Virus record (IMG/VR): IMGVR_UViG_3300025291_000005 | Span: 1 to 43,033 of that record | Source of the DNA: a virus | DNA: 43,033 nucleotides | Strand: one strand, 5' to 3' | Shown here: positions 9,577-34,908 of the stretch, piece after piece | Layout: every line of letters starts with the position of its first letter | Position numbering within the stretch: the stretch's first letter is position 1 | Notes under the pieces: generated by a model | What the model was told of the DNA's origin: nothing | Databases searched by the model: none | Seen by the model: only the letters and a program-made list of their open reading frames with translations | Position numbers and translations under genes: made by a program

Positions 9577-10230
9577 ATGACAACATCAATTATCGGTATC
9601 GATAAATTGTATTTTGCTCCAATGCAAGATGAACAAAAAGAAACATATTACAAACCTGTCCAAATCGGATACGTTAAAGAGTTATCAGTTGAGCCAGAAG
9701 TCGAGTCAGTGTCAGACTACGGAGATAATCGAGCGATCGAATCAGCTTCTGCGATGGGTTCTATTCCTGCAAAACTAGTACTTACAGGTATTCAACCAGA
9801 TCGTGAAGCATTAGTTTTAGGACATAAGTACTCTAAAACGAACAAGACTTTAATCAAGTCTGCCGAAGATGTTGCCCCACAAGGAGCATTACTTTATCGC
9901 AGAATGAAAGCAGATGGATCATACCGATATAAAGTTCTTTACAAAGGACGATTTTCTTTGGGTAAAGAGGAAACAAAAACGAAAGAGGATAAAGTTGAAT
10001 TCCAGTCTCCTGAATATGAAATTTCCTTTATGCCTCGTCTAAAGGATTCTGTTTACGAGTTTCAGATTGATGCTAACAAAGCAACAACTCAAAATCCGGA
10101 TAACTGGGCGGTTGACTTTTTCAAAGGAGTAGTCGAACCATCTGATACCCCAAAACCTCCAACAACAGAACCTCCATTGCCTCCAGGTATTGAAAGTGCT
10201 GAGTTAGTATCGTCTACACCAACTCCTTAA
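9577..10230 (+). CDS. Major tail protein (phi13-like) with a Pro/Thr-rich C-terminal tail
   Basis: 217 aa, positioned before the chaperone pair and the TMP. Confidence 0.7.
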   Translation: MTTSIIGIDKLYFAPMQDEQKETYYKPVQIGYVKELSVEPEVESVSDYGDNRAIESASAMGSIPAKLVLTGIQPDREALVLGHKYSKTNKTLIKSAEDVAPQGALLYRRMKADGSYRYKVLYKGRFSLGKEETKTKEDKVEFQSPEYEISFMPRLKDSVYEFQIDANKATTQNPDNWAVDFFKGVVEPSDTPKPPTTEPPLPPGIESAELVSSTPTP

Positions 10231-13574: not shown

Positions 13575-15701
13575 TTGATATACACACATGATGACGCAAT
13601 AAATGACGGCAAGCAAACTGCCCAACCTAACTTTGAGTACATGACGAAAAACTCGCTGCTCGACTATGAAGTTTACATGATGGGAAAACCAAAGATTACG
13701 ACGGCGCAACTTAGATTTGACCAGGTTTACATTAGAGGAAGGCATAGTACGCTGACGCACACTGATGGCACATATGACGACATTACAATAGAGTTCGGAA
13801 TACGGTTCCGCTCTAGAGGAATGACTCCAGATGTTCAGAAGAAACGTGATATTATCAAGTGGCTTAGGTACGGGTATGGTTACTCAATGACTAATGTTGA
13901 TATTCCTAACACTGTAGTATCTCTACCTATCTATCAGCCTGAAGGACACTTAAAGTTTCACCATATGCCTAATACAACTTTCAAAGTTAAAACTATTGCG
14001 CCCTTCTCTTGGGAGTGGCATCCTCAGACTCAGCAATGGTTTACCAAATTAAGTTTCTTGTGTGACCCCTTCGGGTATGGAGACCTTAAGACAGTAAGCA
14101 TCGGAACAAGCAATGCAACTTATACGTACTCCAAGACCGTTAAACCTTCAGAGTCTTATTGTCCCTCTATAGGTGTCTTAGGATATAATCCGGGGAGTGT
14201 AGGAAATCAGACTAGTACTGTCGGATATGAGTCTGCACAGTTTAGTGACAGTGCTACCTCTCAAGAGTACAGCGTACTATCAAGTACAAGTACCACTTCA
14301 TATGTAAGTATTGGAACTGTTAAGGAGGCAGATATTACCTCTAATGATCGTAACCTTATTCGATCCTGTTGGACTAACCCGGTATCTTCAGGAGCTTGGG
14401 GAGGTTACCTTGGATGGGGAGAATACTACAACGGGGAATCTTCTTGGCGGAACCTTGTAACCTATGACACAGGAGGACGTCCAAAATATACTCGAAGAAC
14501 TCAAAACAGATTCACGATGTATAATGACCATGATACAGAAGATTATTTACTTTACTATAAACTTTGGGCGCCTGTAGACGCCACTATTGTAAACGAAGAT
14601 TCCACTTATCCAAATACTGATTTGCGAGGAAAACCACTTTATTGTAATTTCACTTTAGAGGGTGGAAGCGCACAAGTATCTGTGAGGTATCGCAAAGCAG
14701 GTACTACAACTATGGTGTCTCTTGGGTGGAAAACCGTTTCTCATCAAGTCAATATCCCAGCTGATGCTGAAGCAGTTGAGTTGTGTATCAAAGTCCCTCC
14801 TAAATCTTCCTCACGAATCAGGGAATTGGGCTTATTCAGAAACGCAAAACCTTCACAGCACTCTATAAACGTATCTACTATTGCAGTATACGAGACTGCT
14901 TGGGATATCTTTGCAATAGCTCAATCCATCGATCCTAATATCTTTAAAGGGTTAACTACTGACCAACAAAAAAAAGATAAGCTTTCCTCTAGAAACTTAA
15001 GGGTAGAACTTACATACAATTTAGGGTTCTGGAGTCAGGAAGTTGATAAGACTGCCTCGTTTAACTCTATTCGTATAGGCACTCGTCAGTTTGATCATCG
15101 TTCGAACTATGATAAGCATCTAAGTTTATCCGAAACGGGAAATATTGATAATTATTTCAGAAAGGTCAGCTCTTTCAATTATGTGGTCCCTACTCCGGTT
15201 ACCTATATAAGAGCTGATGCAGAAGGAGCTTCTAACAGATCCGGTCAGTTAATCAATGTTGTTATTATGGATAGTGTTTCTAAGAATGCAGCATGGCTAC
15301 AGCCGAGTTATACGCATTGTAAAGTCACACTAGATGTCCCAAATACTTCTAACTCCGTATCGTTTAGAGATATCGATGAAAACGCTCCTGTGTTTCCGAC
15401 AATATTACTCGACGTAGACCAAACAGCTACTAAGATTCAAGTAGATACAACCTACAAAAACGGTGTTTATTCAACTTTCTGGGTTGATCTTCAAGTTGCA
15501 GGGGCTTTAAATAAGGTTCTTATAGATACTGAAACAATGATAGTAAAAGCTACCGATAACGCAAACCCTAATCAATGGGTATTCTACAATGGATATACTC
15601 AGGGAGGTTTCCCTTATATTTCTTCTGATTGGACTTATTACAATTTTAAAGGAATCAAAGGAGCTACATTCTACTATAGAAACAAGTTTCTAGTTTCCTA
15701 G
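13575..15701 (+). CDS. Distal tail protein (Dit), enlarged form with extra central domains
   Basis: 708 aa with a TTG start after gaaagggga, directly after the TMP. The N-terminus looks like a siphovirus tail-family region. Confidence 0.6.
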   Translation: MIYTHDDAINDGKQTAQPNFEYMTKNSLLDYEVYMMGKPKITTAQLRFDQVYIRGRHSTLTHTDGTYDDITIEFGIRFRSRGMTPDVQKKRDIIKWLRYGYGYSMTNVDIPNTVVSLPIYQPEGHLKFHHMPNTTFKVKTIAPFSWEWHPQTQQWFTKLSFLCDPFGYGDLKTVSIGTSNATYTYSKTVKPSESYCPSIGVLGYNPGSVGNQTSTVGYESAQFSDSATSQEYSVLSSTSTTSYVSIGTVKEADITSNDRNLIRSCWTNPVSSGAWGGYLGWGEYYNGESSWRNLVTYDTGGRPKYTRRTQNRFTMYNDHDTEDYLLYYKLWAPVDATIVNEDSTYPNTDLRGKPLYCNFTLEGGSAQVSVRYRKAGTTTMVSLGWKTVSHQVNIPADAEAVELCIKVPPKSSSRIRELGLFRNAKPSQHSINVSTIAVYETAWDIFAIAQSIDPNIFKGLTTDQQKKDKLSSRNLRVELTYNLGFWSQEVDKTASFNSIRIGTRQFDHRSNYDKHLSLSETGNIDNYFRKVSSFNYVVPTPVTYIRADAEGASNRSGQLINVVIMDSVSKNAAWLQPSYTHCKVTLDVPNTSNSVSFRDIDENAPVFPTILLDVDQTATKIQVDTTYKNGVYSTFWVDLQVAGALNKVLIDTETMIVKATDNANPNQWVFYNGYTQGGFPYISSDWTYYNFKGIKGATFYYRNKFLVS

Positions 15702-18712: not shown

Positions 18713-19546
18713 ATGGGACACATTGTAGATATTTCAAAATGGAATGGTGATATCAATTGGGCAGTAGCAGCACCACAATTAGATTTAGCTATTTGTCGAG
18801 TTCAATATGGATCAAACAAAGTAGATGAGTGGTATAAGCGATATGTAGCTAAATTAGAGGAGTATGGTATTCCGCATGCTGCTTATGCTTATGGATGCTA
18901 TATTTCCGTTAACGATGCAATTAAAGAAGCTGATGATTTCATGGCTCGTACAAGCCAGAACGCTAAGTTTCTTGTATTAGATGTAGAAGATGATACATTA
19001 CAATCCTGTGGAGCTAATAACCTCGCAACGGCATCTCAAGCTTTCATTGATCGTTGTAAATCAAAAGGTTGGAAAGTTGGCTTATATCTAAGTCATCATA
19101 TGTACGAAAATTATGGTTTAAGTGGATTGAACGCTGATTTTCTATGGATTCCACGATATGGTGGTAATAAACCTAAATATGCGTGTGATATTTGGCAGTA
19201 TACCGAAACTGGTCATGTTCCTGGAATCGGTAAATGCGATTTGAATTATCTGGTTGGTAACAAAGATCTTAATTGGTTTATTGGATACCCCGTTCAAGAA
19301 GTACAAGCTCAAGAAGAAGCATATCGTGTTCACATTGGGGATTTCGACTCTTTACAATGGGCAGCTGATGTAGAAGCAAAAGTGAGAGAACTATTCCCAA
19401 ACTATGGTGTGTGGGAAGTTTGTTTGGAAGGTTCTGCACATCGAATTACTATTGGCGATTTCAACTCAAAAGAATGGGCAGATGAAGTGCTTTCTAAGTT
19501 GAAAGAGACGTTTCCTAACTACGGTGTATGGATTCAAAAACTATAG
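18713..19546 (+). CDS. Endolysin: GH25 muramidase plus C-terminal SPOR-like cell-wall binding domain
   Basis: The N-terminus HIVDISKWNGDINW is GH25-like. The C-terminus has two ~37-aa repeats (YRVHIGDFDSLQWAADVEAKVRELFPNYGVW and HRITIGDFNSKEWADEVLSKLKETFPNYGVW). Confidence 0.85.
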   Translation: MGHIVDISKWNGDINWAVAAPQLDLAICRVQYGSNKVDEWYKRYVAKLEEYGIPHAAYAYGCYISVNDAIKEADDFMARTSQNAKFLVLDVEDDTLQSCGANNLATASQAFIDRCKSKGWKVGLYLSHHMYENYGLSGLNADFLWIPRYGGNKPKYACDIWQYTETGHVPGIGKCDLNYLVGNKDLNWFIGYPVQEVQAQEEAYRVHIGDFDSLQWAADVEAKVRELFPNYGVWEVCLEGSAHRITIGDFNSKEWADEVLSKLKETFPNYGVWIQKL

Positions 19547-19550
19547 CAAA

Positions 19551-19585
19551 GAGCCGGCTCCTTCATGGAGTCGGCTCTTTTTTTA
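19551..19585. terminator. Bidirectional terminator between the convergent lysis and accessory modules
   Basis: Stem gagccggctcc/ggagtcggctc followed by ttttttt. Confidence 0.75.
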
Positions 19586-19586
19586 T

Positions 19587-19829
19587 TTACATCCAAAAAT
19601 CATCATAATAGACATCTTTATTTGTTAATTTCTTCAATGCTTTAATAATCTTTTGTGCATTTTTCATAGTTGGTGAAAATTTATCTCCTTGGCATACACG
19701 ACTGATCGTAGACTTGCTAACTCCACTTCTTTCTGCTAATTCTTGTTGAGTAATTTTGTTTTTCTCCAGAAAATTGGAGAGCTTTGACTTTCTCCCTTTA
19801 CCAGAAATAAGCCATCTCATCTTAATCAC
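19587..19829 (-). CDS. Small XRE-type HTH DNA-binding protein
   Basis: Carries ITQQELAERSGVSKSTISRV, an HTH motif. Confidence 0.7.
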   Translation of the reverse strand: MIKMRWLISGKGRKSKLSNFLEKNKITQQELAERSGVSKSTISRVCQGDKFSPTMKNAQKIIKALKKLTNKDVYYDDFWM

Positions 19830-19907
19830 TCCTGTTTTTAAGTTCTTAGTACAAGAGTGGTCAAAGATTTCATTTTTTAAACATCCCGAAAATAGGAATT
19901 CTAAACA

Positions 19908-20438
19908 TCATGAAAATCTTCTTTTCAATAAGGACAGCTTTTTTCCCGGTTCTTCGGCATAGAACTTCATATAGTCACACATCAAAATATTAATCAATTT
20001 ATCTGCTGTGTATCCATGTCTGGGGAATAAGTTAGCCATATCAGAGAAAAACACTTCAATCCTGCGCAAAGTCTTTCTATCAATCTTTACTGTTATTGTT
20101 CCGTATCGCTCATCATCTTCATTAGATTCTAATTCATGTTCTGTATAGTGTTTCTTACTTTCTAGAATCTGAAATAGCTGTTCCATACTATTCTTAGATC
20201 GTATATGCTCAAGAAAATCTTCTACAAGTATTTCAGCAAGATCACTAGCATCACATTCACAATTTTCTTCTTCCATATCCTCAATGATAATACTCATACG
20301 GAAAAGATAGATTTTTAACATCTTAACTTCAAACTTATATTTCTCTTTTAAACTCCATTCAATTTTTGCCTTCTCCCACCAGTTTTTAACGCTCATAAGT
20401 TGAATTTCTTTAGTCATGATGTCGTACTTGCTATACAT
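19908..20438 (-). CDS. Acidic hypothetical protein (176 aa)
   Basis: Track ORF lying 10 nt downstream of the RHH gene in the same operon. Confidence 0.55.
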   Translation of the reverse strand: MYSKYDIMTKEIQLMSVKNWWEKAKIEWSLKEKYKFEVKMLKIYLFRMSIIIEDMEEENCECDASDLAEILVEDFLEHIRSKNSMEQLFQILESKKHYTEHELESNEDDERYGTITVKIDRKTLRRIEVFFSDMANLFPRHGYTADKLINILMCDYMKFYAEEPGKKLSLLKRRFS

Positions 20439-20448
20439 ATATCACACC

Positions 20449-20829
20449 TCACATTGTTTTTAATGCAAAGCAAAGAATACGTGTTGCTGCTGCTCTTTGT
20501 GAAACTCCCCATTCAATCGCTAATTGGACAAGCTTAGAATGTGTTTCCTGCTCCAATTTCGCATGAATGTACTTTTTAGTGTCTTTATATTCGTATGCAT
20601 GTATTTCGCTTATATAATCGATTCTGAGGTGTTCTGTGATTAATTTAGACATGTATTGTGTAGTTGTAATTCCTTGTTGGAAGGCTGATGTTCTTATTAA
20701 TTGTCTTTGTATTTCGTTTACGGGGATTTTTACATCTTTTTTCTTATCAGAACGAATTTTACGAGGTTGTAAGTTTGTTATAGTAGTAGATTTTCTAGAA
20801 GGTTCGAACATAGGGTTAACATTTGTCAT
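20449..20829 (-). CDS. Tandem ribbon-helix-helix-like protein (126 aa)
   Basis: Two RHH-like units: VKIPVNEIQRQLIRTSAFQQGITTTQYMSKLI and IHAKLEQETHSKLVQLAIEWGVSQRAAATRIL. Confidence 0.5.
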   Translation of the reverse strand: MTNVNPMFEPSRKSTTITNLQPRKIRSDKKKDVKIPVNEIQRQLIRTSAFQQGITTTQYMSKLITEHLRIDYISEIHAYEYKDTKKYIHAKLEQETHSKLVQLAIEWGVSQRAAATRILCFALKTM

Positions 20830-20959
20830 GATGCTCCCCTCTTTCGAAAATTCACCTCCTCCCTCTCTTTTATCTCAGGGACACTTTTCCATAATTCCGT
20901 TATTCCACGAAAAAGCGATGAGAGAGAGGGAAAGGTAAATGTTTTTTCTAGATATTTTT

Positions 20960-21229
20960 TTAGTAACCGCCGTCTTTTGGGAAACTAGGTCTTTTCTTTT
21001 TAGGGACTTCTTGTTTGATTGGTGATTCTTTCATAACAATAGGCTCCTCTGTTATATTCGGCATATGAATACCAGCACTACCACCATTACTCGCAATATA
21101 ATAACGTATTGCATGTCGTACAGTTTCTGACTTTCTACTTCTTGGAATCTTTTTTAACCACTCATGAATATCTTTATCCAGCTGATCGTCATAACTTAGC
21201 TGATAAATTTTATTCGCCATCTTCTTCAC
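20960..21229 (-). CDS. ParR-like RHH centromere-binding adaptor
   Basis: 89 aa overlapping the 3' end of the ParM-like gene by 20 nt. It has an RSRKSETVRHAIRYYI RHH-like segment. Confidence 0.55.
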   Translation of the reverse strand: MKKMANKIYQLSYDDQLDKDIHEWLKKIPRSRKSETVRHAIRYYIASNGGSAGIHMPNITEEPIVMKESPIKQEVPKKKRPSFPKDGGY

Positions 21230-22220
21230 TCACTTTAAACATTCCATATTTGAAAAATCCTTCTGCGTTTGCTTGTTGTGGTTTCTCTGCTACCTTCACA
21301 CCACCAACTAAATCTTCAATAGCGCTTGCAAATAATTCTGCTCCGCCACCAGTAATGATAATTTCATCGAAACGGTCAAACGTTTTCCATGCGTTTTTAA
21401 TACCTTGTTTAATCTTTTCAGATACTTGGAATACAGCTTTCGGTTTAATTTCTTCAAAATCAATAATGTGACGTTCTGAAAGTTTATATTGCCCTGATTC
21501 AAAGAATGGTTCAACGTGGTAGTATTCCACTTTTGCATTAGAATTTTGAGAGTTGATGTAATCTGCTATTTCTTGATAAACATCTTTCATTCCAGCTTCA
21601 ACTGATTTAAACTCATTTTCACGACGTAGCCCAGTGATCGAGTCTAAATCTGTTGTTCCTGTTCCGATGTCAATTACTCCTACACGAATATCTTCGTAAC
21701 GCTCATCAGCTACAAATCCATCTGTATCTAAGTATTGGCCCATTACAGTTCCGATTGGTTGAGGTAAAATGATAACTTCCTCTACATTAACCTTTACTGT
21801 TTTCCCATCAACTTTTACTGTATGTAATCCCTCAAATACTGCTTTTAAATCATTTGCTGCTTCTGTTCCGATTTCATTACTAGGTACGCCTGTGATTACA
21901 ATTACTTCATCTGTCGGTTGTACTTTGCTTTTAAGAGCAAGATCAGCAAGAGCGATGCTTGTTAATACTTTGTATAAAGGTTCTTTGTATCTGTTTTGGA
22001 ATCCATAAGTTGCAAATACATCTTTTACTTTTGTGATGTCTTTCCCCCAAACATATTCGATACCTTCAATTTCATAAGTCTTTAATTTCGTCTTTTTACC
22101 TGTAATTGATTCTCCTACATCCTTTTTAAAAGCCACTAATGAAGGTAATACTCCAGATGCAACTTCACTTCTACCTTTAATGTTTCCGTTACCGTGGTCA
22201 ATTACTAATACTTTTTTCAT
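21210..22220 (-). CDS. parM: Actin-like plasmid segregation ATPase (ParM/StbA/Alp family)
   Basis: 336 aa from MKKVLVIDHGNGNIKG (phosphate 1). It also has DIGTGTTD (phosphate 2) and IIITGGGAELF (adenosine motif). The track start at 22286 is an unsupported extension. Confidence 0.85.
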   Translation of the reverse strand: MKKVLVIDHGNGNIKGRSEVASGVLPSLVAFKKDVGESITGKKTKLKTYEIEGIEYVWGKDITKVKDVFATYGFQNRYKEPLYKVLTSIALADLALKSKVQPTDEVIVITGVPSNEIGTEAANDLKAVFEGLHTVKVDGKTVKVNVEEVIILPQPIGTVMGQYLDTDGFVADERYEDIRVGVIDIGTGTTDLDSITGLRRENEFKSVEAGMKDVYQEIADYINSQNSNAKVEYYHVEPFFESGQYKLSERHIIDFEEIKPKAVFQVSEKIKQGIKNAWKTFDRFDEIIITGGGAELFASAIEDLVGGVKVAEKPQQANAEGFFKYGMFKVSEEDGE

Positions 22221-22274
22221 CAAATACACAACCTTTCTAGATTCATTGTATAAAACTTTATTATTTATAAATTG

Positions 22275-22302
22275 ATTATACAACAAGCGAACTGTTTTTC
22301 AA
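22275..22302 (-). promoter_or_regulatory. Sigma-A-type promoter for the parM operon (TTGAAA-16-TATAAT)
   Basis: The minus strand reads ttgaaaaacagttcgcttgttgtataat, about 50 nt upstream of the parM ATG. Confidence 0.55.
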
Positions 22303-22546
22303 TTAAAATATTAAAACTCTACACAATCATACTATTAAACTCTAGTTATTTTTATTCCTGATAATTTCACGAATCCATTTTCTTCGCAAAGGCTTCGCTA
22401 AATCAGTAATAATGCATATAGTGAGGCAGGGACGACGTAGGCTTGTCCTCCCTAAGATTCGTTAAAAATCCCTATAAACCGAAAAACATCTTTTTCACAA
22501 CAGATATGGTATGTGAAATTTCAATGTGGTTATCTTTCTAAATCGG

Positions 22547-23449
22547 TCATGATGCCAACCAATCATAGAAAGGTACTTTGCCTGTATATTTGTGTTCGGA
22601 TAAAGATTGTGCTATTAAACTACGATCAATTTTGTCTTCATGTAATTGCTTTTTCGCATTTTCTTTTATTCTACGAAGTTCCAAGTCTTCAATCTTATTC
22701 GCTAAAGCCGAAATTAAGTAATCCCTAAAGTTAGTAACCTTACCTTGGTTGTATTTATCCATTACTTTTCGTAAAACAGATTTAAAGCTTCGATCTGTTA
22801 ATTCATCTTTTGTAGCTTCACGAAGAGAGTTGATTATTAAATTTAATTCTTCCTCTGGTAGGGAAGGTGAAGAGAAGCTTCGCTTATCATCATCAATTTT
22901 CGCTATATCATTTATATATATATTGGTATTTTCTTTCTTGGTATTTTTTCTTTGGTTATTTATAATGTACTGACTTTCCGGATTCGGGATTTCCACATTC
23001 GGATTTTCAGTAAATGGTTTTTCGGAGCTCTCCGAACTTTCGGAAACCGTATCCTGGATTTCAGGAAGTGGTTCTCCGAACTCCACACGAAGTTGATATC
23101 CAAGTGAATATTGCTCTTGAATCGTTTCTTCTAATATTTCAGCCACATCTTCCTTTACTTGTCCGTAAATATAGATTTGTTCTTTATGCTTGCCCTTGTC
23201 CAAAACTTTCACACGAGCAACGTATCTATTATGTATTAACTCTGTAAGTGCATTGTAGTGTGCGTCACGTCCGTTTTTAGAACGGTTGATGATGTCAGGC
23301 ATAGTAATCTTCCAAGAACCTTCTCGGTGTGAACAGAATTGAATTAAAAGGTATTTCGCCATTCCTGTCAGTTTGCAATCGTCAAGTAAAGCGTTCTCTA
23401 CTACACTGTGTCCTCGTTTCCGAGCATGTTTGAAAATATCATTAGTCAT
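22547..23449 (-). CDS. Plasmid-type replication initiator (RepA_N-like winged-helix N-terminus)
   Basis: 300 aa. The N-terminus VVENALLDDCKLTGMAKYLLIQFCSH...NALTELIHNRYVARVKV follows the RepA_N pattern. The centre is low-complexity. Confidence 0.5.
   Translation of the reverse strand: MTNDIFKHARKRGHSVVENALLDDCKLTGMAKYLLIQFCSHREGSWKITMPDIINRSKNGRDAHYNALTELIHNRYVARVKVLDKGKHKEQIYIYGQVKEDVAEILEETIQEQYSLGYQLRVEFGEPLPEIQDTVSESSESSEKPFTENPNVEIPNPESQYIINNQRKNTKKENTNIYINDIAKIDDDKRSFSSPSLPEEELNLIINSLREATKDELTDRSFKSVLRKVMDKYNQGKVTNFRDYLISALANKIEDLELRRIKENAKKQLHEDKIDRSLIAQSLSEHKYTGKVPFYDWLAS
22976..23080. repeat. Cluster of TTCGGA/TCCGAA/TCCGGA hexamers inside the rep gene (iteron-like)
   Basis: At least 7 copies lie within 105 bp, including the near-palindrome ttcggagctctccgaactttcggaa. 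Confidence 0.4.
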
Positions 23450-23450
23450 A

Positions 23451-23509
23451 ACAAAAAATCCTCCATTTTCCTCCCCGGCTTAAAATTGGGTATAGGAAAG
23501 TAGAGGATT
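23451..23509 (-). terminator. Attenuator hairpin in the rep leader that also sequesters the rep RBS
   Basis: Minus-strand RNA has arms aauccucuacuuucc and ggaaaauggaggauu (15 bp, one mismatch and one wobble), then uuuugu and AUG. The GGAGGA RBS lies in the 3' arm. Confidence 0.5.
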
Positions 23510-23548
23510 TGTATTTACGTTTTTTTGAAGTTATGATACTATCAATAT

Positions 23549-23602
23549 AGATAGCAACAACTTAATAACGTAACTTACAAAACCTCTGCTTTCGGAGTTT
23601 TT
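23549..23602 (+). ncRNA. Predicted ~50-nt countertranscript antisense to the rep leader
   Basis: Plus-strand tttacg-17-tactat with an extended TG (23514-23542). The hairpin ctctg/cuuu/cggag is followed by uuuuu (23584-23602). Confidence 0.35.
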
Positions 23603-23746
23603 AGAATGGTGTCTTGGCGACCAACCTATCGACCATCTAAAAACTGAGCCGGGGGTTTTTTAATTTTATATAAAAGTAGTTGTTTAAAAATCTATGTATC
23701 TACCCTCAATCATAGCAGAAGATTGACGAAAAAAGAAGACAAAAAG

Positions 23747-23771
23747 AGAAGACACTCGAAATGAGTGTCTT
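23747..23771 (-). terminator. Terminator of the membrane-protein gene
   Basis: Perfect stem aagacactc/gagtgtctt overlapping the stop codon. The sequence downstream on the minus strand is T-rich. Confidence 0.65.
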
Positions 23772-24858
23772 ATTTTAATCCAAATTGCGCCTTATTTGTA
23801 AGCTTCCCACCTTGGAACATAAAGTTAGCATTTGCTCCTGATGTGCCTTGACCTTTCCACATATACATGACTGTGTAAAACTCTGTTCCTTTATCTCCAC
23901 TTTCAGATAAAACTTCCCCATCGCTACCAATGATTTCTTTTACTTGATCATATGTCATACCGTTTTCAATTCTGTCAAACTCATCTTTAGATATTGTTGG
24001 TTTCCCAGCGCTAGATCGTTTTTTGTTTTCTTCATCAGCTTTTTGTTTTTCTTCTTGAGCTTTTTTAACATTCGCAGCAACAATTTCATGTTCCTTTTCT
24101 ATGTAGTCAGGAACAGACATATTGTACTTCTGAGCCATTTTTTCAAAATGTTCCAATACATCCTTATCCTTTGAATCTTTAAGGTCAGTTGGTTCATAAG
24201 ACTGATATTTCACATTGTATTTGTTGTAAATCTCCATGTTTACATTACGACCATCATCCATTTTTAAAGCTGTTTCCTTTGGCTTTTCTTCTTTCTTAGG
24301 AGCTTTTTCAACTGATTTATTATCGTTTTGAGAAGTTTTTACATTAGTAGAAGCGGCTTTCTCTTCTTTCTTATCAAAAATCGCGCTAATTGTAGCAACA
24401 GCGATAAATAAATACACAGCGATTGCTACAACCATTTTCCATTTAGTATTAGATCGGAACCCAAGTATTTTATTGCGGAACTTTCTTTGAATTAGGTGTG
24501 TTTCAAGATTTGTGTTGTTTTTAATAAAACTCTCAATCTTTTTGCCGTCTTCTTTTGCTGTAAGTTCAAATGTTTTATTTATACCTTTGAATCTGAATAT
24601 AGATTTTATAGCAAAGTGATCAATTGTCACATTGTCATAGTCTGAAATTTGATGTGTAACTAAGCTAACAACATCATCAATACTTTTATCATAATCAAAA
24701 AGTTGAATGTGGTCTTTTGTGATAGTAGCATATCCTGATTTACTCTCTTCAAATCCAGCTCTGATGATGATAGGTGTATAATTTTGATATCTTCTAGCTA
24801 TCGCTTGTTTAGCAAGTTTATCATCACTAGGCTTTTTCTCGTTTTTATCTTCTGCCAT
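23770..24858 (-). CDS. Single-pass membrane protein: cytoplasmic PH-like domain, Lys/Glu-rich linker and extracellular DUF3862/BLIP-like domain
   Basis: 362 aa from MAEDKNEK after the RBS ggaggga. The TM segment is WKMVVAIAVYLFIAVATISAIF. The C-terminus is GMTYDQVKEIIGSDGEVLSESG...ANFMFQGGKLTNKAQFGL. Confidence 0.7.
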   Translation of the reverse strand: MAEDKNEKKPSDDKLAKQAIARRYQNYTPIIIRAGFEESKSGYATITKDHIQLFDYDKSIDDVVSLVTHQISDYDNVTIDHFAIKSIFRFKGINKTFELTAKEDGKKIESFIKNNTNLETHLIQRKFRNKILGFRSNTKWKMVVAIAVYLFIAVATISAIFDKKEEKAASTNVKTSQNDNKSVEKAPKKEEKPKETALKMDDGRNVNMEIYNKYNVKYQSYEPTDLKDSKDKDVLEHFEKMAQKYNMSVPDYIEKEHEIVAANVKKAQEEKQKADEENKKRSSAGKPTISKDEFDRIENGMTYDQVKEIIGSDGEVLSESGDKGTEFYTVMYMWKGQGTSGANANFMFQGGKLTNKAQFGLK

Positions 24859-25046
24859 TTTTAATTGTTCCCTCCAAAATGTAAGATTCTTAAACAAGCA
24901 TAACAAATTTAGTTACAACTATTTTGTCATATTGTGTCGAATAAATTAAAAAAAGAGAGCCTAAGCTCTCACTGTCAAATTTGGTAATATTATGTAAAAT
25001 TTTACCACTGGATATTGGAAAAGATTTCTTCTAAAATGAAATCAAA

Positions 25047-25391
25047 TCACAACAGATCATCGCATTCACTCAAAAATCTCACGTAATGATCGAGTTGTTT
25101 GCAAAAATTCTTTCTTTGGCTTTCAGATAACGCCGCATACGTTTTTTGAACACCGAAGATAGTATTATGTAGCATTTCATCATCAACAGCGTCATTTCGT
25201 CCAGTAAGCACGTCTAATGATACGCTGAAATATGAGGAGAGGCGAAATAAAGTTGCAAGGTCAGGTTCAGAAAAACCATTTTCATAATTGTTAATCTGGC
25301 TTCTGCTGAGATTTAGATCATGAGCTAAATCCGCTTGTCTTAATGAACGACTTTTTCTGAGTTTTTTTAAAGTTTCACCTAAAGTTTTCAT
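25047..25391 (-). CDS. XRE-family HTH regulator (114 aa)
   Basis: Starts MKTLGETLKKLRKSRSLRQADLAHDLNLSRSQINNYENG. The track start at 25448 is an unsupported extension. Confidence 0.75.
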   Translation of the reverse strand: MKTLGETLKKLRKSRSLRQADLAHDLNLSRSQINNYENGFSEPDLATLFRLSSYFSVSLDVLTGRNDAVDDEMLHNTIFGVQKTYAALSESQRKNFCKQLDHYVRFLSECDDLL

Positions 25392-25898: not shown

Positions 25899-27029
25899 GT
25901 GCAAAAATTATTGAACAGTCTCAAAGGGGATTTATGTTTAGCAGGAATCACGAATAGTAAGTTAGCGTTATCTTGGGGAATATCTCCAAGCGGTGTATCT
26001 GATGTATTCAAAGGTAAAAGACAAATGCGGTTTTCGTATCTTTCTACATCATTAGCTTTGTTGAAAAAAGGGATTAAAACAGAAAGCGAATTCATTTCGA
26101 AATACGCTGAAGTTGCAAAACCTAAAAACAGAAGAGAAATTATGGAATATCTATCTTTACGTGGAGATTTTAACTCACTGAAGAAGATTGTAGAACAAGA
26201 AAAAGAATCAAAAACAGGTACAAATAAAGAATGGGCTAATGTCTATGATCTGATTTACAAAAGATATACTCAGAAAGTGGAGCTTCTTGAGTTCTATAAC
26301 TTGATGCGAGAGAAAAATAAGAAGACAAACACTTTAGAAATGAAAGTCTTGATTGATTTATTATTATGTCAACTCTTATATCAGACTGGAAATCATGAAT
26401 TAATATCAAACAAAATGGATGAAATCCAGTCAAATATTAAACTTATATCTAATAAATTTATCGAAAAAACATTTGATTTACGTTTAAAAGAAGCTGAAGC
26501 TGTTCTTCACTTAAGAAGAGGTAACATAGAAGAAGCTCGTAACAAATGCAATGAGATGCTAAGTGCATGTCAACTTAATCCTTACTATTTGTTACCTCAA
26601 GCGATTGCTTATTTTAAATTAGGTGAGTCTTATATATTTGAAGACTACGAGAAGTCTAAGAAGTATTTGCTCAAAGCTTATGAATCATTAGATGGTTTGG
26701 ATTTTGTAGGTATTAAAGAAAAAAGAGAAATGTACCAATACACTCTTTCTTTTTTGAAAATATATCACGCAAAAGAAATGGATACTTTGACAGAAATTCA
26801 TAAAGCTGAGTTAGCATTTTTAAAAATTAGACAAGGGTTTAAAAAAGAAGCTAAAAAACTATTAATGGAATTAAAAGACGAAAACGGGAAGTTGAGCGCT
26901 ATACAAACAGTATATTTAGCAATGGCATGTGATAGTGAATCTTTAATGAAAGAAGCTCTTGAAAGCCTATTGCAAAAAGGTGACATATTTTACTCTCAAT
27001 TGGCTAAAAGATACTTGGGCTATTCTTGA
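25899..27029 (+). CDS. aimR: AimR-like arbitrium receptor (RRNPP family, HTH plus TPR-like body)
   Basis: 376 aa with a GTG start 8 nt after aaggagga. It has an N-terminal HTH-like segment and an all-helical body. Its size and segment order recall phi3T/SPbeta AimR. A signal-peptide ORF follows. Confidence 0.7.
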   Translation: MQKLLNSLKGDLCLAGITNSKLALSWGISPSGVSDVFKGKRQMRFSYLSTSLALLKKGIKTESEFISKYAEVAKPKNRREIMEYLSLRGDFNSLKKIVEQEKESKTGTNKEWANVYDLIYKRYTQKVELLEFYNLMREKNKKTNTLEMKVLIDLLLCQLLYQTGNHELISNKMDEIQSNIKLISNKFIEKTFDLRLKEAEAVLHLRRGNIEEARNKCNEMLSACQLNPYYLLPQAIAYFKLGESYIFEDYEKSKKYLLKAYESLDGLDFVGIKEKREMYQYTLSFLKIYHAKEMDTLTEIHKAELAFLKIRQGFKKEAKKLLMELKDENGKLSAIQTVYLAMACDSESLMKEALESLLQKGDIFYSQLAKRYLGYS

Positions 27030-27501: not shown

Positions 27502-27516
27502 CGCTATCAATCGCCT
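27482..27516. terminator. Hairpin shared by the convergent AimX-position ORF and the CI-like gene
   Basis: Arms aggcgatcggtagc and gctatcaatcgcct (14 bp, one mismatch and one wobble). A T-run follows only in the minus direction. Confidence 0.5.
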
Positions 27517-27857
27517 GATATTTTTACTAGTCTTTTTATCATCTCGATAAGTTCTTTTTGTTTTTCTGGATTCTTAGATCGTATATCCTTCATCACTTGT
27601 TCCAAGTCGTCCTTAGCTGTTATATCAGGATTCCTTTCATCAGATTCACCTAAAATATAAGCTACAGACACATTGGCCAATTTAGCAATTTCCAAAGTTA
27701 GTCTTTTAGAAGGGCATTTTTCACTTTCTTCATTTTCCCACATTGAAACGGCTGATCTACTTTGCATTCCTAACGCTTCAGCAAATTCCCTTTGACTCAT
27801 TTTTAATATATCTGTCCTTATTTCTTTTACTCGTCTACTAATTAGTTTGTAATCCAT
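27507..27857 (-). CDS. CI-like XRE-family repressor (116 aa)
   Basis: Starts MDYKLISRRVKEIRTDILKMSQREFAEALGMQSRSAVSMWENE and is divergent from the cro-like gene. The track start at 27998 is an unsupported extension. Confidence 0.8.
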   Translation of the reverse strand: MDYKLISRRVKEIRTDILKMSQREFAEALGMQSRSAVSMWENEESEKCPSKRLTLEIAKLANVSVAYILGESDERNPDITAKDDLEQVMKDIRSKNPEKQKELIEMIKRLVKISGD

Positions 27858-27943
27858 TTTTTTAATCCCCTTATTAGTTATTAGTAATCCTAAGCTTACT
27901 AATGATATAAAAACTTCTCTTATAATTAAATTTAACAAAAATG

Positions 27944-28033
27944 TTCTCAAAATGACAACACTTTTTCTTAAAATGACAGCACTTATAAAATTTTTCATAT
28001 TTTTTAAATTTAGGGGTTCTCAAAATGAGACCT
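27944..28033. promoter_or_regulatory. Three related operator repeats in the CI/Cro intergenic region, plus a rightward promoter
   Basis: The repeats are ttctcaaaatgacaaca (27944), ttcttaaaatgacagca (27965) and ttctcaaaatgagacct (28017). The third overlaps the -35 of ttctca-18-tatact (28041-28046). Confidence 0.55.
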
Positions 28034-30164: not shown

Positions 30165-30361
30165 AACGAGCGATAAAGGAATTACAAAAATCACTTGGAG
30201 TCGAGAAAAGAAAATTAAGTGATTACGAGTTTAAGTTAAAAAACCTAAAGGAACATGAAATTTCACTTCGTGAAGGCATAGCGGATGTGAAATTGACAAT
30301 CGTAGATATAGAGGAAACACTTTCAACTTTAGAAATCATGACAGAAGGAGCTGAAGCATAG
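30161..30361 (+). CDS. Hypothetical coiled-coil protein
   Basis: Track ORF overlapping both neighbours. Confidence 0.55.
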   Translation: MKRAIKELQKSLGVEKRKLSDYEFKLKNLKEHEISLREGIADVKLTIVDIEETLSTLEIMTEGAEA

Positions 30362-31044
30362 TGAATAGAAGCGAATCGATTGTTGAACTGGCAAAAGCAT
30401 TAGTGAAGTTCAATTCAGAGGTTAACAAGATTGCTAAGGATGCGGATAATCCTTTCTTTAAAAACAATTATGCAACATTAGACACGATTATAGATGAAAT
30501 TAGACCAATCCTTTCTAAAAACGGATTAAGCATTATGCAAATACCAAGCGGAGACGGACAGAACGTCACTTTAAAAACACTATTAATACATGAGAGTGGT
30601 GAATGGTTAGAAAGTGATGAGCTAACAATGAAGCCGGTAAAAAACGATCCGCAAGCAGTAGGGAGTTGTATCACATATGCTCGTCGATATTCATTAGCAG
30701 CATTTCTTAGCTTGAACACAGGTGAAGATGATGATGGTAACAGCGCTACTTACGGAAAAGGTAACAAGCCTAATCAGAAGAGTAATAGTGGACAAGCTCC
30801 AAATAAACCACAAGGAAACAGTGGCGGTGGCGGCAATGGTAAAGCATCAGAGAAACAAATGAAGATGATAAACGCAAAAATAGCACATGTAGCGGTCATT
30901 TCTAAAGCAGAGAAACAAACAATCGAGGATACATTAAAAAGCAAAATTGGAGTGACAAACTTAACAGAAATAAGCCCACAGATTGCCTCTAAAGCAATAG
31001 AGATACTAATCGGTTGGGAAGATCAGTACAAAAAAGCTAACTAA
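30361..31044 (+). CDS. erf: ERF-family single-strand annealing recombinase
   Basis: Carries NPFFKNNYATLDTIIDEIRPILSKNGLSIMQ ... HESGEW ... GSCITYARRYSLAAFLSLNTGEDDDG. Confidence 0.85.
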   Translation: MNRSESIVELAKALVKFNSEVNKIAKDADNPFFKNNYATLDTIIDEIRPILSKNGLSIMQIPSGDGQNVTLKTLLIHESGEWLESDELTMKPVKNDPQAVGSCITYARRYSLAAFLSLNTGEDDDGNSATYGKGNKPNQKSNSGQAPNKPQGNSGGGGNGKASEKQMKMINAKIAHVAVISKAEKQTIEDTLKSKIGVTNLTEISPQIASKAIEILIGWEDQYKKAN

Positions 31045-31058
31045 GGAGATGAAAACCC

Positions 31059-31244
31059 ATGCTGAACCATCAAATCACATCAAATGTCGTCCTCCCAGCA
31101 TGGGTTTATGAGGATGCAAAAACAGAACAAGAGATTAAGAGGAACGCTTGCAGGTATATCAATCGCATACCAAAGCGTTATCCCGGATATAGGGTTTTAG
31201 AAGTAAATGACGGTATAGCAAAATGCGAAAGGTGTGAAGATTGA
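31059..31244 (+). CDS. Hypothetical protein
   Basis: Track ORF in the early operon. Confidence 0.5.
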   Translation: MLNHQITSNVVLPAWVYEDAKTEQEIKRNACRYINRIPKRYPGYRVLEVNDGIAKCERCED

Positions 31245-31465
31245 TGTTCCGAGTTCCAGTAAGACGAGGTTCAATGACAGAAATATTAAAAGCAGTTCGT
31301 GATTTAGAAAAACGAGGTTATGACTATATAACTCCCATTAAGAAAGTGTACAGAGCGGAAAAAACTTTCTATAACGATGGGAAATTTAAAGGGAAAGACA
31401 AGATTAGGTTTACAGGCATGGATGATCATGTCAGTTACGAATGTTGGATGAAGAAGGTGAACTGA
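31241..31465 (+). CDS. Hypothetical protein
   Basis: Track ORF overlapping the upstream stop. Confidence 0.5.
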   Translation: MMFRVPVRRGSMTEILKAVRDLEKRGYDYITPIKKVYRAEKTFYNDGKFKGKDKIRFTGMDDHVSYECWMKKVN

Positions 31466-32224
31466 TTGAGCAATTTATTAATACATGAACCACCATTGAT
31501 GGTTTTGCCTTCTTTAGCGAAGGAAATTGGGTTAAATGAAGCAATAGTGTTGCAACAGATACATTATTGGCAACAAATGTCTCGTCACTTTCATGATGGG
31601 AAACGTTGGATCTACAATAGCTTTCCTAAATGGAACGAGCAATTCCCGTTCTGGAGCGAACGTACATTAAAACGGATATTTAAAAGCCTTGAAGATAGAA
31701 AGTTATTGTTTGTGGGTAATTATAACAAGTTAGCAATAGACCGGACCAAGTGGTATTCCATAAATTATGAAGTATTGAATGGCATTGGTGGACAAAATGG
31801 CACGACCATAGTGTCAAATTGGCACGATGAGAATGCCAACATGACCCGACCATTACCAGAGATTACTACAGAGAATAACAACAATAATATATATGCTGCT
31901 AAAGCAGACACGAAAAAGAAGTCTACAAAGCGTTCTTATAGTGATGATTTTGAAGAGATATGGAGTATCTATCCCAAGAAAAGAAACAAGCCTAAAGCGT
32001 ATCAACGCTATAAAGAATCTTTAGATAAAAATCACAGTCATGATGTTATTAAATACGGAATTACATGTTACGCAAAAGATTGTGAGAAACAAAATACAGA
32101 ATTACAGTACATCAAGATGCTAGAAGGCTTCCTAAATGACGAAAGGTATCTTGAGTACAAAAAAGTAGATTCAAAGCAAAAACCAAAACAAACAGCTATT
32201 TCTATTGATAATTTACTTGATTGA
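31466..32224 (+). CDS. Replisome organizer / DnaD-like replication protein
   Basis: 252 aa with a winged-helix-like N-terminus. It lies directly upstream of the DnaB-type helicase. Confidence 0.65.
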   Translation: MSNLLIHEPPLMVLPSLAKEIGLNEAIVLQQIHYWQQMSRHFHDGKRWIYNSFPKWNEQFPFWSERTLKRIFKSLEDRKLLFVGNYNKLAIDRTKWYSINYEVLNGIGGQNGTTIVSNWHDENANMTRPLPEITTENNNNNIYAAKADTKKKSTKRSYSDDFEEIWSIYPKKRNKPKAYQRYKESLDKNHSHDVIKYGITCYAKDCEKQNTELQYIKMLEGFLNDERYLEYKKVDSKQKPKQTAISIDNLLD

Positions 32225-32234
32225 GGTGTAACGG

Positions 32235-33542
32235 ATGGATAAGTACCAGGTTCATTACGAAAACGAATGCTACAGTCTTGGCATGATGATGCGAGATAAC
32301 AGTTTAATAGATGAAACGAGATTAAAACCGAAACATTACATTAATCTTCATAACAGAAACTTATTTAAAGTGATGAAGGAATTACGTAATGAGGACAAGC
32401 CGGCAGATATGAACTCACTTGCACAAGTGGGAGAAAACAGAATGGCAACGTTTGGCGGTGTAAATACATTAAGTAACGTGTACGGATTAGGAGTGCTTAG
32501 TCATAACTTTAAATTCACACAAGATAAGATGATTGAATTTGTGGCGATTGAGGAAGCATTGAACGAGGTTGAAAACTTCAAAGAGAAATCGAAGTTCGTT
32601 CACAACTCTAAACAACTGAATGAGCTGATTTCCAAGATTAATAATGTACAAGTTGCCACTATAAAGCCTCAGCCGTCTTTTAGGGAGAAGTTACAAATGA
32701 GGGTGAAACAACATAGCGAAATGCCGGAACAAGGCTTGAGTGGAACGCCAACAGGGTTTACGAGTCTTAACAAAGCATTGGACGGATGGCAGCCTTCAGA
32801 CTTAATTATTGTTGCAGCACGTCCGAGTGTCGGAAAGACAGCTTTCGTACTAGAAACAATGCGACGTGGTGCAAAAGCGAGTCCAGATTATATGGGAACA
32901 TTCTTCTCTTGTGAAATGGATGAAGACAAGATTATTGATAGATGGATTGCAACAGAAGGAAAGATTCCGGTTGCTACGATGAATAATCCAAATAAATTCT
33001 TTGCTGGAAGACAGGAGTATTGGGAGAAGTACCACAAGGCATGTGGAGAATTAACAGAACTTCCTATAGATGTTCGTTCTGAAAAAGATATTAACGAGAT
33101 CCGTGCAGTGATTCGCAAGATTGTAAAAGAGAACCCAGGAAAGAAACACCTCTTTGCAATCGATCACTTAGGACATGTGAATATCGATGAGTCATTTGAT
33201 AGTAACCATCTCAAGTTTACATACATCATGAAACAACTGAAAGATATGCAGAAGGAATTTAAGGTACCTATTATCCTCATAGCGCAGCTTAATCGTGGGG
33301 TAGAGGGTAAGCAAGATAAAGCGCCAACAATGTCCGACATTAGGGAATCAGGGAGTATAGAAGAGATTGCAGACGTGATTATCTTCCCACACCGTCCAGC
33401 TTACTTTGACAGAGAACAAAGGGAAGTGCAAGACATTCACGATGTGGAGCTAATCATTGCAAAGAACCGTAACGGGTTCGTCGGAACATTGCCGTTCCAG
33501 TTCGTTAAGAAAACGAATTTATTTATCGATAAAGGAGTGTGA
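32235..33542 (+). CDS. Replicative DNA helicase (DnaB family)
   Basis: 435 aa with Walker A ARPSVGKTAF, the AIDHLG and IILIAQLNRGVE motifs and a DIRESGSIEEIAD motif. Confidence 0.9.
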   Translation: MDKYQVHYENECYSLGMMMRDNSLIDETRLKPKHYINLHNRNLFKVMKELRNEDKPADMNSLAQVGENRMATFGGVNTLSNVYGLGVLSHNFKFTQDKMIEFVAIEEALNEVENFKEKSKFVHNSKQLNELISKINNVQVATIKPQPSFREKLQMRVKQHSEMPEQGLSGTPTGFTSLNKALDGWQPSDLIIVAARPSVGKTAFVLETMRRGAKASPDYMGTFFSCEMDEDKIIDRWIATEGKIPVATMNNPNKFFAGRQEYWEKYHKACGELTELPIDVRSEKDINEIRAVIRKIVKENPGKKHLFAIDHLGHVNIDESFDSNHLKFTYIMKQLKDMQKEFKVPIILIAQLNRGVEGKQDKAPTMSDIRESGSIEEIADVIIFPHRPAYFDREQREVQDIHDVELIIAKNRNGFVGTLPFQFVKKTNLFIDKGV

Positions 33543-34048: not shown

Positions 34049-34516
34049 ATGGCTATGAAATACAAACTGGTTGCAACTTGGGAAGATTATGAAATTGCCG
34101 AGAAGAATGGCATTAGCAGACATAATGTAGATCAAAGGTTAGCTATGGGTTGGGACCTAACAAAAGCGACGACTGAACCTATTGCAAACTCATTTAAGAG
34201 AAAACATAAAAAGTATGTTGATTTAGCAGAGAAAAACGGTATCAAATACCCTACATTTTATAATCGTGTGAACGTGTATAAGTGGAGCTTACAGGAAGCA
34301 GCTACTACTCCTATTATGACAAGAGAAGACGCATGGGAAAAATCAAGAAGATTAAGATCAAAGATTCCAGATGAAATATATGTATTAGCTGAAAAGAATG
34401 GCATTGCTAAAAACACATTACAGTCAAGAGTTTTAGTTCTGAAATGGGACATGAAAACGGCAGCGACATTAAAAACAAGTAAGGGTAATAGAACGAAGAA
34501 AGGGGAATCGGTATGA
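34049..34516 (+). CDS. Protein with three ~35-aa HTH-like repeats
   Basis: The repeats are AEKNGISRHNVDQRLAMGWDLTKATTEPI, AEKNGIKYPTFYNRVNVYKWSLQEAATTPI and AEKNGIAKNTLQSRVLVLKWDMKTAATL. The start may be ATG 34055. Confidence 0.6.
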   Translation: MAMKYKLVATWEDYEIAEKNGISRHNVDQRLAMGWDLTKATTEPIANSFKRKHKKYVDLAEKNGIKYPTFYNRVNVYKWSLQEAATTPIMTREDAWEKSRRLRSKIPDEIYVLAEKNGIAKNTLQSRVLVLKWDMKTAATLKTSKGNRTKKGESV

Positions 34517-34908
34517 AATACAATACGGTAATTACTTTCGAAGATTATGAGAAAGCAGCTAAAAATGGTATTAGCAAGGCGAATGTATATCAGCGAGTGA
34601 ATGGGTATGGTTGGAGTGTTGATCGAGCAATAACAGAACCTGTAAAACATTGCAAAGGAAGTCAAGAAGGCATGGTAGTAATTGCTGAGTGCAATGGAAT
34701 TAGTAGACCCACTTATTTTAGAAGAATTTCGAGAGGGATGCCACCTCATGAAGCAGCAACGAAACCAAAAGGGTATACTGCATTCCTGGAGATAGCTGCA
34801 GAACATGGAATTAAAAGTGTCACATTTTATCAAAGAGTCGCAAGAGGGATGTCCCCTTATGAAGCAGCAACAAAACCATTGCGAAAACGAAAGAAACAAA
34901 TCAGCTAG
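34513..34908 (+). CDS. Paralogous protein with three HTH-like repeats
   Basis: The repeats are AAKNGISKANVYQRVNGYGWSVDRAITEPV, AECNGISRPTYFRRISRGMPPHEAATKP and AAEHGIKSVTFYQRVARGMSPYEAATKP. Confidence 0.6.
   Translation: MKYNTVITFEDYEKAAKNGISKANVYQRVNGYGWSVDRAITEPVKHCKGSQEGMVVIAECNGISRPTYFRRISRGMPPHEAATKPKGYTAFLEIAAEHGIKSVTFYQRVARGMSPYEAATKPLRKRKKQIS

Follow-up and report, generated by a model that had tools for sequence, protein, structure and literature searches.

A probable phage-plasmid of the Bacillus cereus group with a ParM-type partition system and a predicted plasmid-type replication initiator

Introduction

For phage IEBH of the Bacillus cereus group, the prophage is described as a plasmid on the strength of experiments (Smeesters 2011, cited by way of PMC8026635), and the IEBH genome is listed without a recombinase (PMC8026635 Table 1; PMC11526630). 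Both IEBH and vB_BtS_B83 (hereafter B83) are plasmid prophages that encode ParM and a ribbon-helix-helix (RHH) adaptor (PMC8026635, PMC6669507, PMC11526630). For B83, maintenance during lysogeny was argued from ParM, the RHH adaptor, a RepA-like initiator encoded opposite to the lytic genes, and iterons upstream of parM (PMC6669507). The IEBH phage-plasmid community of Pfeifer et al. comprises 83 elements (PMC7969092). Here we analyze a 43,033-bp stretch of viral DNA (hereafter the window), which is the entire IMG/VR virus record IMGVR_UViG_3300025291_000005, and focus on the maintenance block at 19587-25391, which encodes ParM, a ParR-like adaptor, and a predicted replication initiator (Rep). 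A first-pass annotation, made from the letters of the DNA, had proposed that the block marks a phage-plasmid whose prophage is kept as a low-copy episome. We consider that the genome very probably belongs to a phage of the IEBH/Waukesha92-like community and that, judging from homology, its lysogeny would proceed without integration, as a circular and probably low-copy plasmid.

Results

Phage and plasmid genes on one circularly assembled genome

The estimated completeness of the record is 100% (CheckV), and IMG/VR flags it with "direct terminal repeats". The two ends of the window share 127 identical bp, so that the assembly forms a closed circle. The plus strand encodes the small and large terminase, an SPP1-type portal, a MuF-like protein, scaffold, and capsid, followed by tape measure, tail proteins, and an endolysin (18713-19546). 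Beyond the block are AimR (25899-27029) and a CI-like repressor on the minus strand (27507-27998), and further downstream are genes for an Ant-type antirepressor, ERF, a DnaD-like helicase loader, DnaB, dUTPase, and a C5 methylase. Nucleotide matches are confined to phages and plasmids of the B. cereus group, and by its predicted gene content the virus is a siphovirus of that group, temperate and equipped with an arbitrium switch. ParM/ParR and the initiator thus share one replicon with complete gene sets for virion, lysis, and lysogeny. All open reading frames (ORFs) that the first-pass annotation had named in the block were recovered on the minus strand at the same coordinates (Table 1).

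The order of the block (lysin, helix-turn-helix (HTH) regulator, 176-aa protein, 126-aa RHH-like protein, ParR, ParM, non-coding element, Rep, accessory gene, HTH regulator, and aimR) is the same in IEBH and Waukesha92, and the block is also syntenic with 27 closed Bacillus plasmids of 41-77 kb. Among its matches are closed circular plasmids (41-54 kb) of B. cereus, B. mycoides, B. paranthracis, and B. tropicus. In IEBH, 250, Waukesha92, phiS58, TP21T, BMBtp3, and the 27 plasmids, the counterparts of the backbone genes and of the non-coding element show 80-88% identity. A 41.5-kb contig of a B. thuringiensis isolate encodes a Rep of 95% identity in the same layout. This contig has the other of the two ParMR types, its lytic replication module differs, and it terminates in phage genes rather than host genes. 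Homologues of the ParR-like protein are found mostly on replicon-sized contigs of 36-54 kb. The gene set, the absence of a recombinase described below, and the synteny with IEBH and closed plasmids support the proposal of a phage-plasmid kept as a low-copy episome, the plasmid state being drawn from homology.

Compared with IEBH (Cecivirus), the block order is shared, both genomes are without a recombinase, and the backbone is about 84% identical at the nucleotide level. However, the ParM proteins are only 25% identical, so that IEBH ParM falls in a different actin-like subfamily. The replication protein of IEBH (464 aa) is unrelated in annotation and its gene lies on the opposite strand, its structural module is unrelated at the nucleotide level, and its block contains a transposase. 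B83 and the phiS58/Waukesha92 group are, like the present virus, arbitrium-controlled siphoviruses (PMC6669507, PMC8026635). In these phages as well, iterons are found upstream of parM, and the strand opposite to the lytic genes encodes ParM, a RepA-like initiator, and an RHH adaptor. On the other hand, they encode one or two Xer-family tyrosine recombinases, which are thought to resolve dimers and have no equivalent in this genome, and their Reps belong to other families. Since at least five different replication proteins, in either orientation, occupy the Rep slot among the relatives, the conserved backbone carries the plasmid genes as variable cassettes, a pattern known from phage-plasmids in general (PMC7969092).

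Table 1 Features of the maintenance block and the evidence for their assignment
Feature	Position	Strand	Evidence or remarks
Cro/C1-type HTH regulator, 80 aa	19587-19829	-	Pfam HTH_3 3e-13; last conserved-backbone gene
Conserved protein, 176 aa	19908-20438	-	phrog_5875, PHROG 6e-107
CopG/RHH-like DNA-binding protein, 126 aa	20449-20829	-	phrog_5779, PHROG 2e-74
ParR-like adaptor, 86 aa	20960-21220	-	NCBIfam ParR PRK13916 E 2e-6, well under the family cut-off; phrog_38823
ParM actin-like segregation ATPase, 336 aa	21210-22220	-	ALP_N, PRK13917, phrog_691
parM promoter TTGAAA-16-TATAAT and two ~22-bp direct repeats (candidate parC)	22275-22344	-	
Non-coding element of ~100 nt with 11-6-11 inverted repeat	22375-22480	-	Conserved in relatives
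Predicted replication initiator (Rep), 300 aa	22547-23449	-	HTH_36-type winged-helix N-domain, disordered linker, RepA/DnaD-like C-domain
Candidate internal origin	22900-23115		TCCGAA/TTCGGA hexamer cluster, overlapping palindromes, then AT-rich tract; linker-coding part of rep
Membrane-anchored protein, C-terminal DUF3862/BLIP-like domain	23770-24858	-	Pfam DUF3862 7e-7; phrog_37750
HTH_3 regulator divergent from aimR, 114 aa	25047-25391	-	Pfam HTH_3 6e-15

Proposed lysogeny without integration and its alternatives

Several points weigh against this plasmid-prophage reading. The genome is derived from a metagenome, apparently of a rhizosphere, and no lysogen is available; a circularly permuted, headful-packaged virion genome would also assemble as a circle. 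Nucleotide similarity between the structural module and known phage-plasmids is almost nil, so that membership in the group rests on the maintenance and early regions. For Rep, Pfam and NCBIfam give no direct match, and the function is deduced from shared domains and position. In addition, homologues of partition genes are also found in phages described as virulent (Pfeifer et al., PMC7969092).

The last point leads to an alternative in which ParM/ParR and the initiator would serve lytic growth or a carrier state, for instance by positioning the replicating phage DNA in the manner of phage cytoskeletal proteins, and no stable plasmid prophage would form. The virulent phages concerned are SPO1-like Bacillus phages (the BigBertha community of PMC7969092), and the plasmid state of the present element is deduced from homology. 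However, the ParM, ParR-like, and initiator genes are transcribed opposite to all lytic genes and on the strand of the CI-like repressor, and the same arrangement was argued to serve lysogeny in B83 (PMC6669507). The genome also has a separate lytic replication set, which the first-pass annotation had recognized and which we located at 30361-33542 (ERF 30361-31044, DnaD-like loader 31466-32224, and DnaB 32235-33542), and its lysogeny switch of arbitrium, CI/Cro, and Ant is complete. We therefore regard a purely lytic or carrier role as very unlikely.

The first-pass annotation had recognized no recombinase, protelomerase, or transposase. Six-frame hidden Markov model (HMM) searches of the window at E<=10 gave no match to Phage_integrase (PF00589), Resolvase (PF00239), Recombinase (PF07508), the ResT/TelK protelomerase family (PF16684), or the rve transposase, while positive-control genomes matched in the same searches. 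A recombinase domain hidden in one of the hypothetical ORFs would have contradicted the episome proposal, and the Pfam scan of the remaining ORFs found no recombinase, protelomerase, or rve family. Only four ORFs of at least about 170 aa are left without a confident Pfam family (341-952, 9577-10230, 13575-15701, and 19908-20438), and 9577-10230 has a weak tail-tube match.

Another alternative is integration by host recombinases (Xer-type, as for CTX-phi-like elements) or by a recombinase of an unrecognized family, with ParM and Rep serving only a transient episomal phase. Two large proteins, encoded at 13575-15701 and 341-952, have no family assignment, but they sit in the tail module and beside the packaging genes, respectively. 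A 21/28 match to the B. subtilis dif site, for which we used what we take to be the correct query sequence, is located at 1405-1432 within a 1.1-kb non-coding tract. However, its seven mismatches barely improve on the 8-10 found in ten shuffled controls, its region has no counterpart in any related plasmid, and no DNA similar to 1340-1480 was found among the PLSDB plasmids. We judged the dif-like site to be a chance match. Free circular plasmids are the form in which relatives with this module have been deposited. Integration by either route seems highly improbable.

That the prophage is a linear plasmid, with N15-like or protein-capped ends, is scarcely credible: the related B. mycoides plasmid p52 (NZ_CP036134.1) is flagged linear in PLSDB, which may be a deposition artefact, but the six frames contain no protelomerase, the replication genes are DnaB, the DnaD-like loader, and ERF with no protein-primed polymerase, the assembly closes on itself, and the other related plasmid records fetched are circular.

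ParM, the ParR-like adaptor, and a candidate parC

ParM matches Pfam ALP_N (1e-22), MreB-like_C (2e-13), and ParM_N (1e-6) above the cut-offs, and it matches a PHROG partition protein (2e-73). The match to NCBIfam ParM PRK13917 (3e-102) scores 342 bits against an equivalog cut-off of 417, so that the protein is a member of the ParM family and not that exact equivalog. Although the ORF reaches a TTG at 22286, every family alignment begins with the ATG at 22220. Among solved structures, the nearest is ParM of the Staphylococcus plasmid pSK41 (PDB 3JS6, E 1e-28), and the phosphate-1 (DxGxGxxK-like), phosphate-2 (DIGTGTTD), and adenosine (TGGGA) motifs line up in this alignment. The ParM with three nucleotide motifs reported at 21210-22220 in the first-pass annotation is confirmed by this start codon and these motifs.

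The downstream gene had been read as a small overlapping RHH protein at 20960-21229. The ORF indeed reaches a GTG at 21229 and overlaps parM, but its homologues make up a narrow family: 18 clusters, each of 83-88 aa and each from the B. cereus group. Since this length holds for every homologue, the ATG at 21220 is the probable start, and from there the overlap with the parM stop is 11 nt. The ParR match in NCBIfam lies well under the family cut-off (Table 1), the top PDB match of the family profile is the RHH domain of pSK41 ParR (2Q2K, E 0.077), and a Pfam scan of the 18 family members matched none. The AlphaFold model consists of an extended N-terminus, two helices, and a disordered tail, with a mean predicted local distance difference test (pLDDT) score of 59. 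A strand-helix-helix region at the N-terminus and a basic C-terminal tail are conserved; basic tails of this kind contact ParM in known systems. The ORF and its overlap with parM are therefore borne out, while the start is probably shifted and the RHH fold is plausible but weakly supported.

The parM promoter (22302-22275) is near consensus, with 11/12 positions in a promoter scan. Two direct repeats of about 22 bp, detected as a tandem repeat at 22300-22344, abut this promoter. In an alignment of 16 loci from relatives, the promoter/repeat stretch has two versions that track the ParMR type (336-aa or 343-aa ParM), which is the behaviour expected of a ParR-specific centromere. We consider this stretch a candidate parC, to which ParR may bind. 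As in the type II ParMRC system of pSK41, the candidate centromere repeats are located upstream of parM, although only two clear copies are present here. Unlike that system, the present one is embedded in a phage genome.

Rep and a candidate origin inside its gene

Rep has no Pfam, NCBIfam, or significant PDB sequence match, and its full-length relatives in homology searches are "hypothetical proteins" of Bacillaceae. RepA_N initiators have a host-specific C-domain that is shared within a group of hosts. Residues 167-298 of Rep show 56% identity (E 2e-41) with this domain in an annotated replication initiator protein A (P0076), whose residues 15-88 form a true RepA_N domain (3e-20), and the Rep family profile has a match (E 0.003) in the C-terminal tail of B. 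subtilis DnaD. In the AlphaFold model, residues 1-125 form a confident winged helix, the linker (residues 129-194) is disordered with pLDDT <50, and the C-domain is helical.

The N-domain profile matched more than 28,000 representative proteins. Among 138 sampled relatives of this domain, 66 score as Pfam HTH_36 and none as RepA_N, and the domains joined to it are mostly those of replication initiation (DnaB_2, Bac_RepA_C, Phg_2220_C, and DnaA_N). We rejected RepA_N (PF06970) as an assignment of the N-domain: the profile-profile probability is 2%, and PF06970 matches neither the six frames at E<=10 nor the protein. A Foldseek search with the full Rep model gave only weak winged-helix matches (DnaD N-domain, E 0.18). 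Further fold matches are also weak (Z 5.6-7.9), and all are initiation proteins, namely primosomal DnaB, the DnaD N-domain, PDB 4PTA (the pSK41-type RepA "MDR initiator"), a DnaD domain, and RctB domain 1. Rep is thus predicted to be an initiator of the plasmid/phage type, combining an HTH_36-type domain for DNA binding with a C-domain of the RepA type suited to the Bacillaceae host machinery. The "RepA_N-like initiator" of the first-pass annotation holds as an initiator-like ORF with a C-domain shared with RepA_N proteins, but not for the N-domain. As in the pSK41 initiator, a winged-helix N-domain is combined with a DnaD-like C-domain and candidate binding sites lie inside the gene, but the pSK41 protein differs in that the Rep N-domain has no RepA_N match.

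Five of the 21 TCCGAA/TTCGGA hexamers in the genome fall within 120 nt inside rep, where about 0.06 are expected. The arrangement of hexamers and AT-rich tract recurs in a Rep homologue of only 61% protein identity, which may reflect constraint on the DNA or on the protein. An origin inside the rep coding sequence is a feature of RepA_N (pSK41/pAD1-type) replicons. The hexamer cluster is most likely the origin and is proposed here as a candidate; no DnaA-box cluster was found near rep or parM.

An imperfect 24-nt inverted repeat (23449-23517) touches the rep start codon and covers the GGAGGA ribosome-binding site, and it is possibly a translational or antisense copy-control structure. Rep homologues of 61-74% identity also occur without ParM on three contigs, namely L005 and L006 (10001-10849) and L008 (10001-10900). 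Cry-toxin genes are present on L005 and L006, which are 680-717 kb long, and in L006 they adjoin the Rep homologue. L008 is a phage-like contig of 213 kb with the Rep homologue directly upstream of a gene resembling that of the replication terminator protein (RTP). These settings are replicon-like contexts.

A conserved non-coding element upstream of parM

The element at 22375-22480 is located between rep and the candidate parC and is better conserved than the surrounding genes. It was found in all 41 related records (27 plasmids and 14 phages) at 74-85% identity, and 40 of them leave it unannotated; the record of vB_BcM_CUBc25 places a 29-aa hypothetical ORF over it. In 15 relatives that were fetched, it lies about 150 bp upstream of parM regardless of the type of Rep, the orientation of Rep, and the type of ParM.

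The core of the element is the 11-6-11 inverted repeat, which contains a Shine-Dalgarno-like GGGAGGA. Most copies have a strong ribosome-binding site followed by ATG, and the start codon is ACG in the window. We rejected a small ORF because, besides this ACG, Waukesha92-type copies have a 1-nt deletion that shifts the frame without loss of nucleotide conservation, and the element is accordingly taken as non-coding. Folded as a single sequence, the element gave z -1.1 in the sense of parM and z -3.2 for the antisense direction, and Rfam gave no match to it. Since the hairpin is invariant, there is essentially no covariation (covariation term -0.1, with one weak compensatory pair outside the main stem), and roles as RNA and as DNA are indistinguishable. 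The element is unlikely to be the binding site of the 126-aa, 176-aa, or HTH proteins, since one relative has it without those genes.

A tentative idea, which we hold to be on the unlikely side, is that the element serves all B. cereus-group phage-plasmids as a maintenance site acting in cis, or as a small RNA, that has so far gone undescribed. Possible roles include a start site for host-factor-dependent replication or primosome assembly, a dimer-resolution site, and a copy-control RNA. If so, any such role would be independent of the initiator cassette present.

Flanking genes and other features of the window

The HTH regulator at 19587-19829 has about 84-88% nucleotide identity in relatives, and its gene and the endolysin gene have a common bidirectional terminator at 19548-19580. 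The 176-aa protein has no Pfam or NCBIfam match, and a protein-atlas search gave only unnamed Bacillota clusters. The 126-aa protein has weak NikA-like, RepB-RCR_reg, and RepA-regulator matches, and its atlas cluster is named CopG family regulator. The 130-nt gap between this gene and parR contains a 15-nt inverted repeat (20860-20931, 87% complementary), which may be a terminator or an operator dividing two transcription units.

The protein at 23770-24858 matches phrog_37750 from residue 17, a transmembrane segment is visible in its translation, and its gene is an accessory one with no maintenance role. The ORF extends to 24906 (362-378 aa) between rep and the HTH regulator; in relatives, this slot holds other small accessory genes, including those for DUF4352 and peptidylprolyl isomerase. 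The regulator at 25047-25391 is 114 aa long if it starts at 25391, as in relatives, whose homologues are 345 nt.

Outside the block, the ORFs at 34049-34516 and 34513-34908 overlap and each match phrog_1065 and an HNH-endonuclease PHROG, so this pair may be a tandem duplication or a split gene. The 1.1 kb upstream of the small terminase gene (960-2074) are ORF-poor, with an odd C/A-rich stretch at about 1620-1800. No tRNA genes were found in the window. Rfam gave no match over the whole window at gathering thresholds, and at 22200-23800 it gave chance-level matches only.

Discussion

In the cycle that we propose for the plasmid prophage, the winged-helix N-domain of Rep would bind repeated sites, most likely inside rep, and its DnaD/RepA-like C-domain would recruit the host replication machinery for theta replication. 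ParR would bind the repeats at the parM promoter (parC), and ParM filaments would push sister copies apart, as in pSK41 and R1. Upon induction under the control of arbitrium and the CI/Cro/Ant switch, the set of ERF, DnaD-like loader, and DnaB would replicate the DNA for headful packaging.

The phage-plasmid assignment is well supported, but since IEBH, B83, and the community of 83 elements have been published, the lifestyle is already known, and current understanding is unchanged: in this group, the documentation of plasmid prophages that encode ParM plus an RHH adaptor goes back to 2011. Possible new details are the candidate origin inside rep and the element of about 100 nt upstream of parM. 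For annotation, a family of 300-aa "hypothetical proteins" of Bacillus plasmids and phages can be named replication initiators. The maintenance block is plainly modular, with a backbone of the HTH regulator, two small DNA-binding-like proteins, and the non-coding element that takes interchangeable Rep and ParMR cassettes. The virus adds an environmental, structurally divergent member to the phage-plasmids of the B. cereus group, which includes food-poisoning and biopesticide strains.

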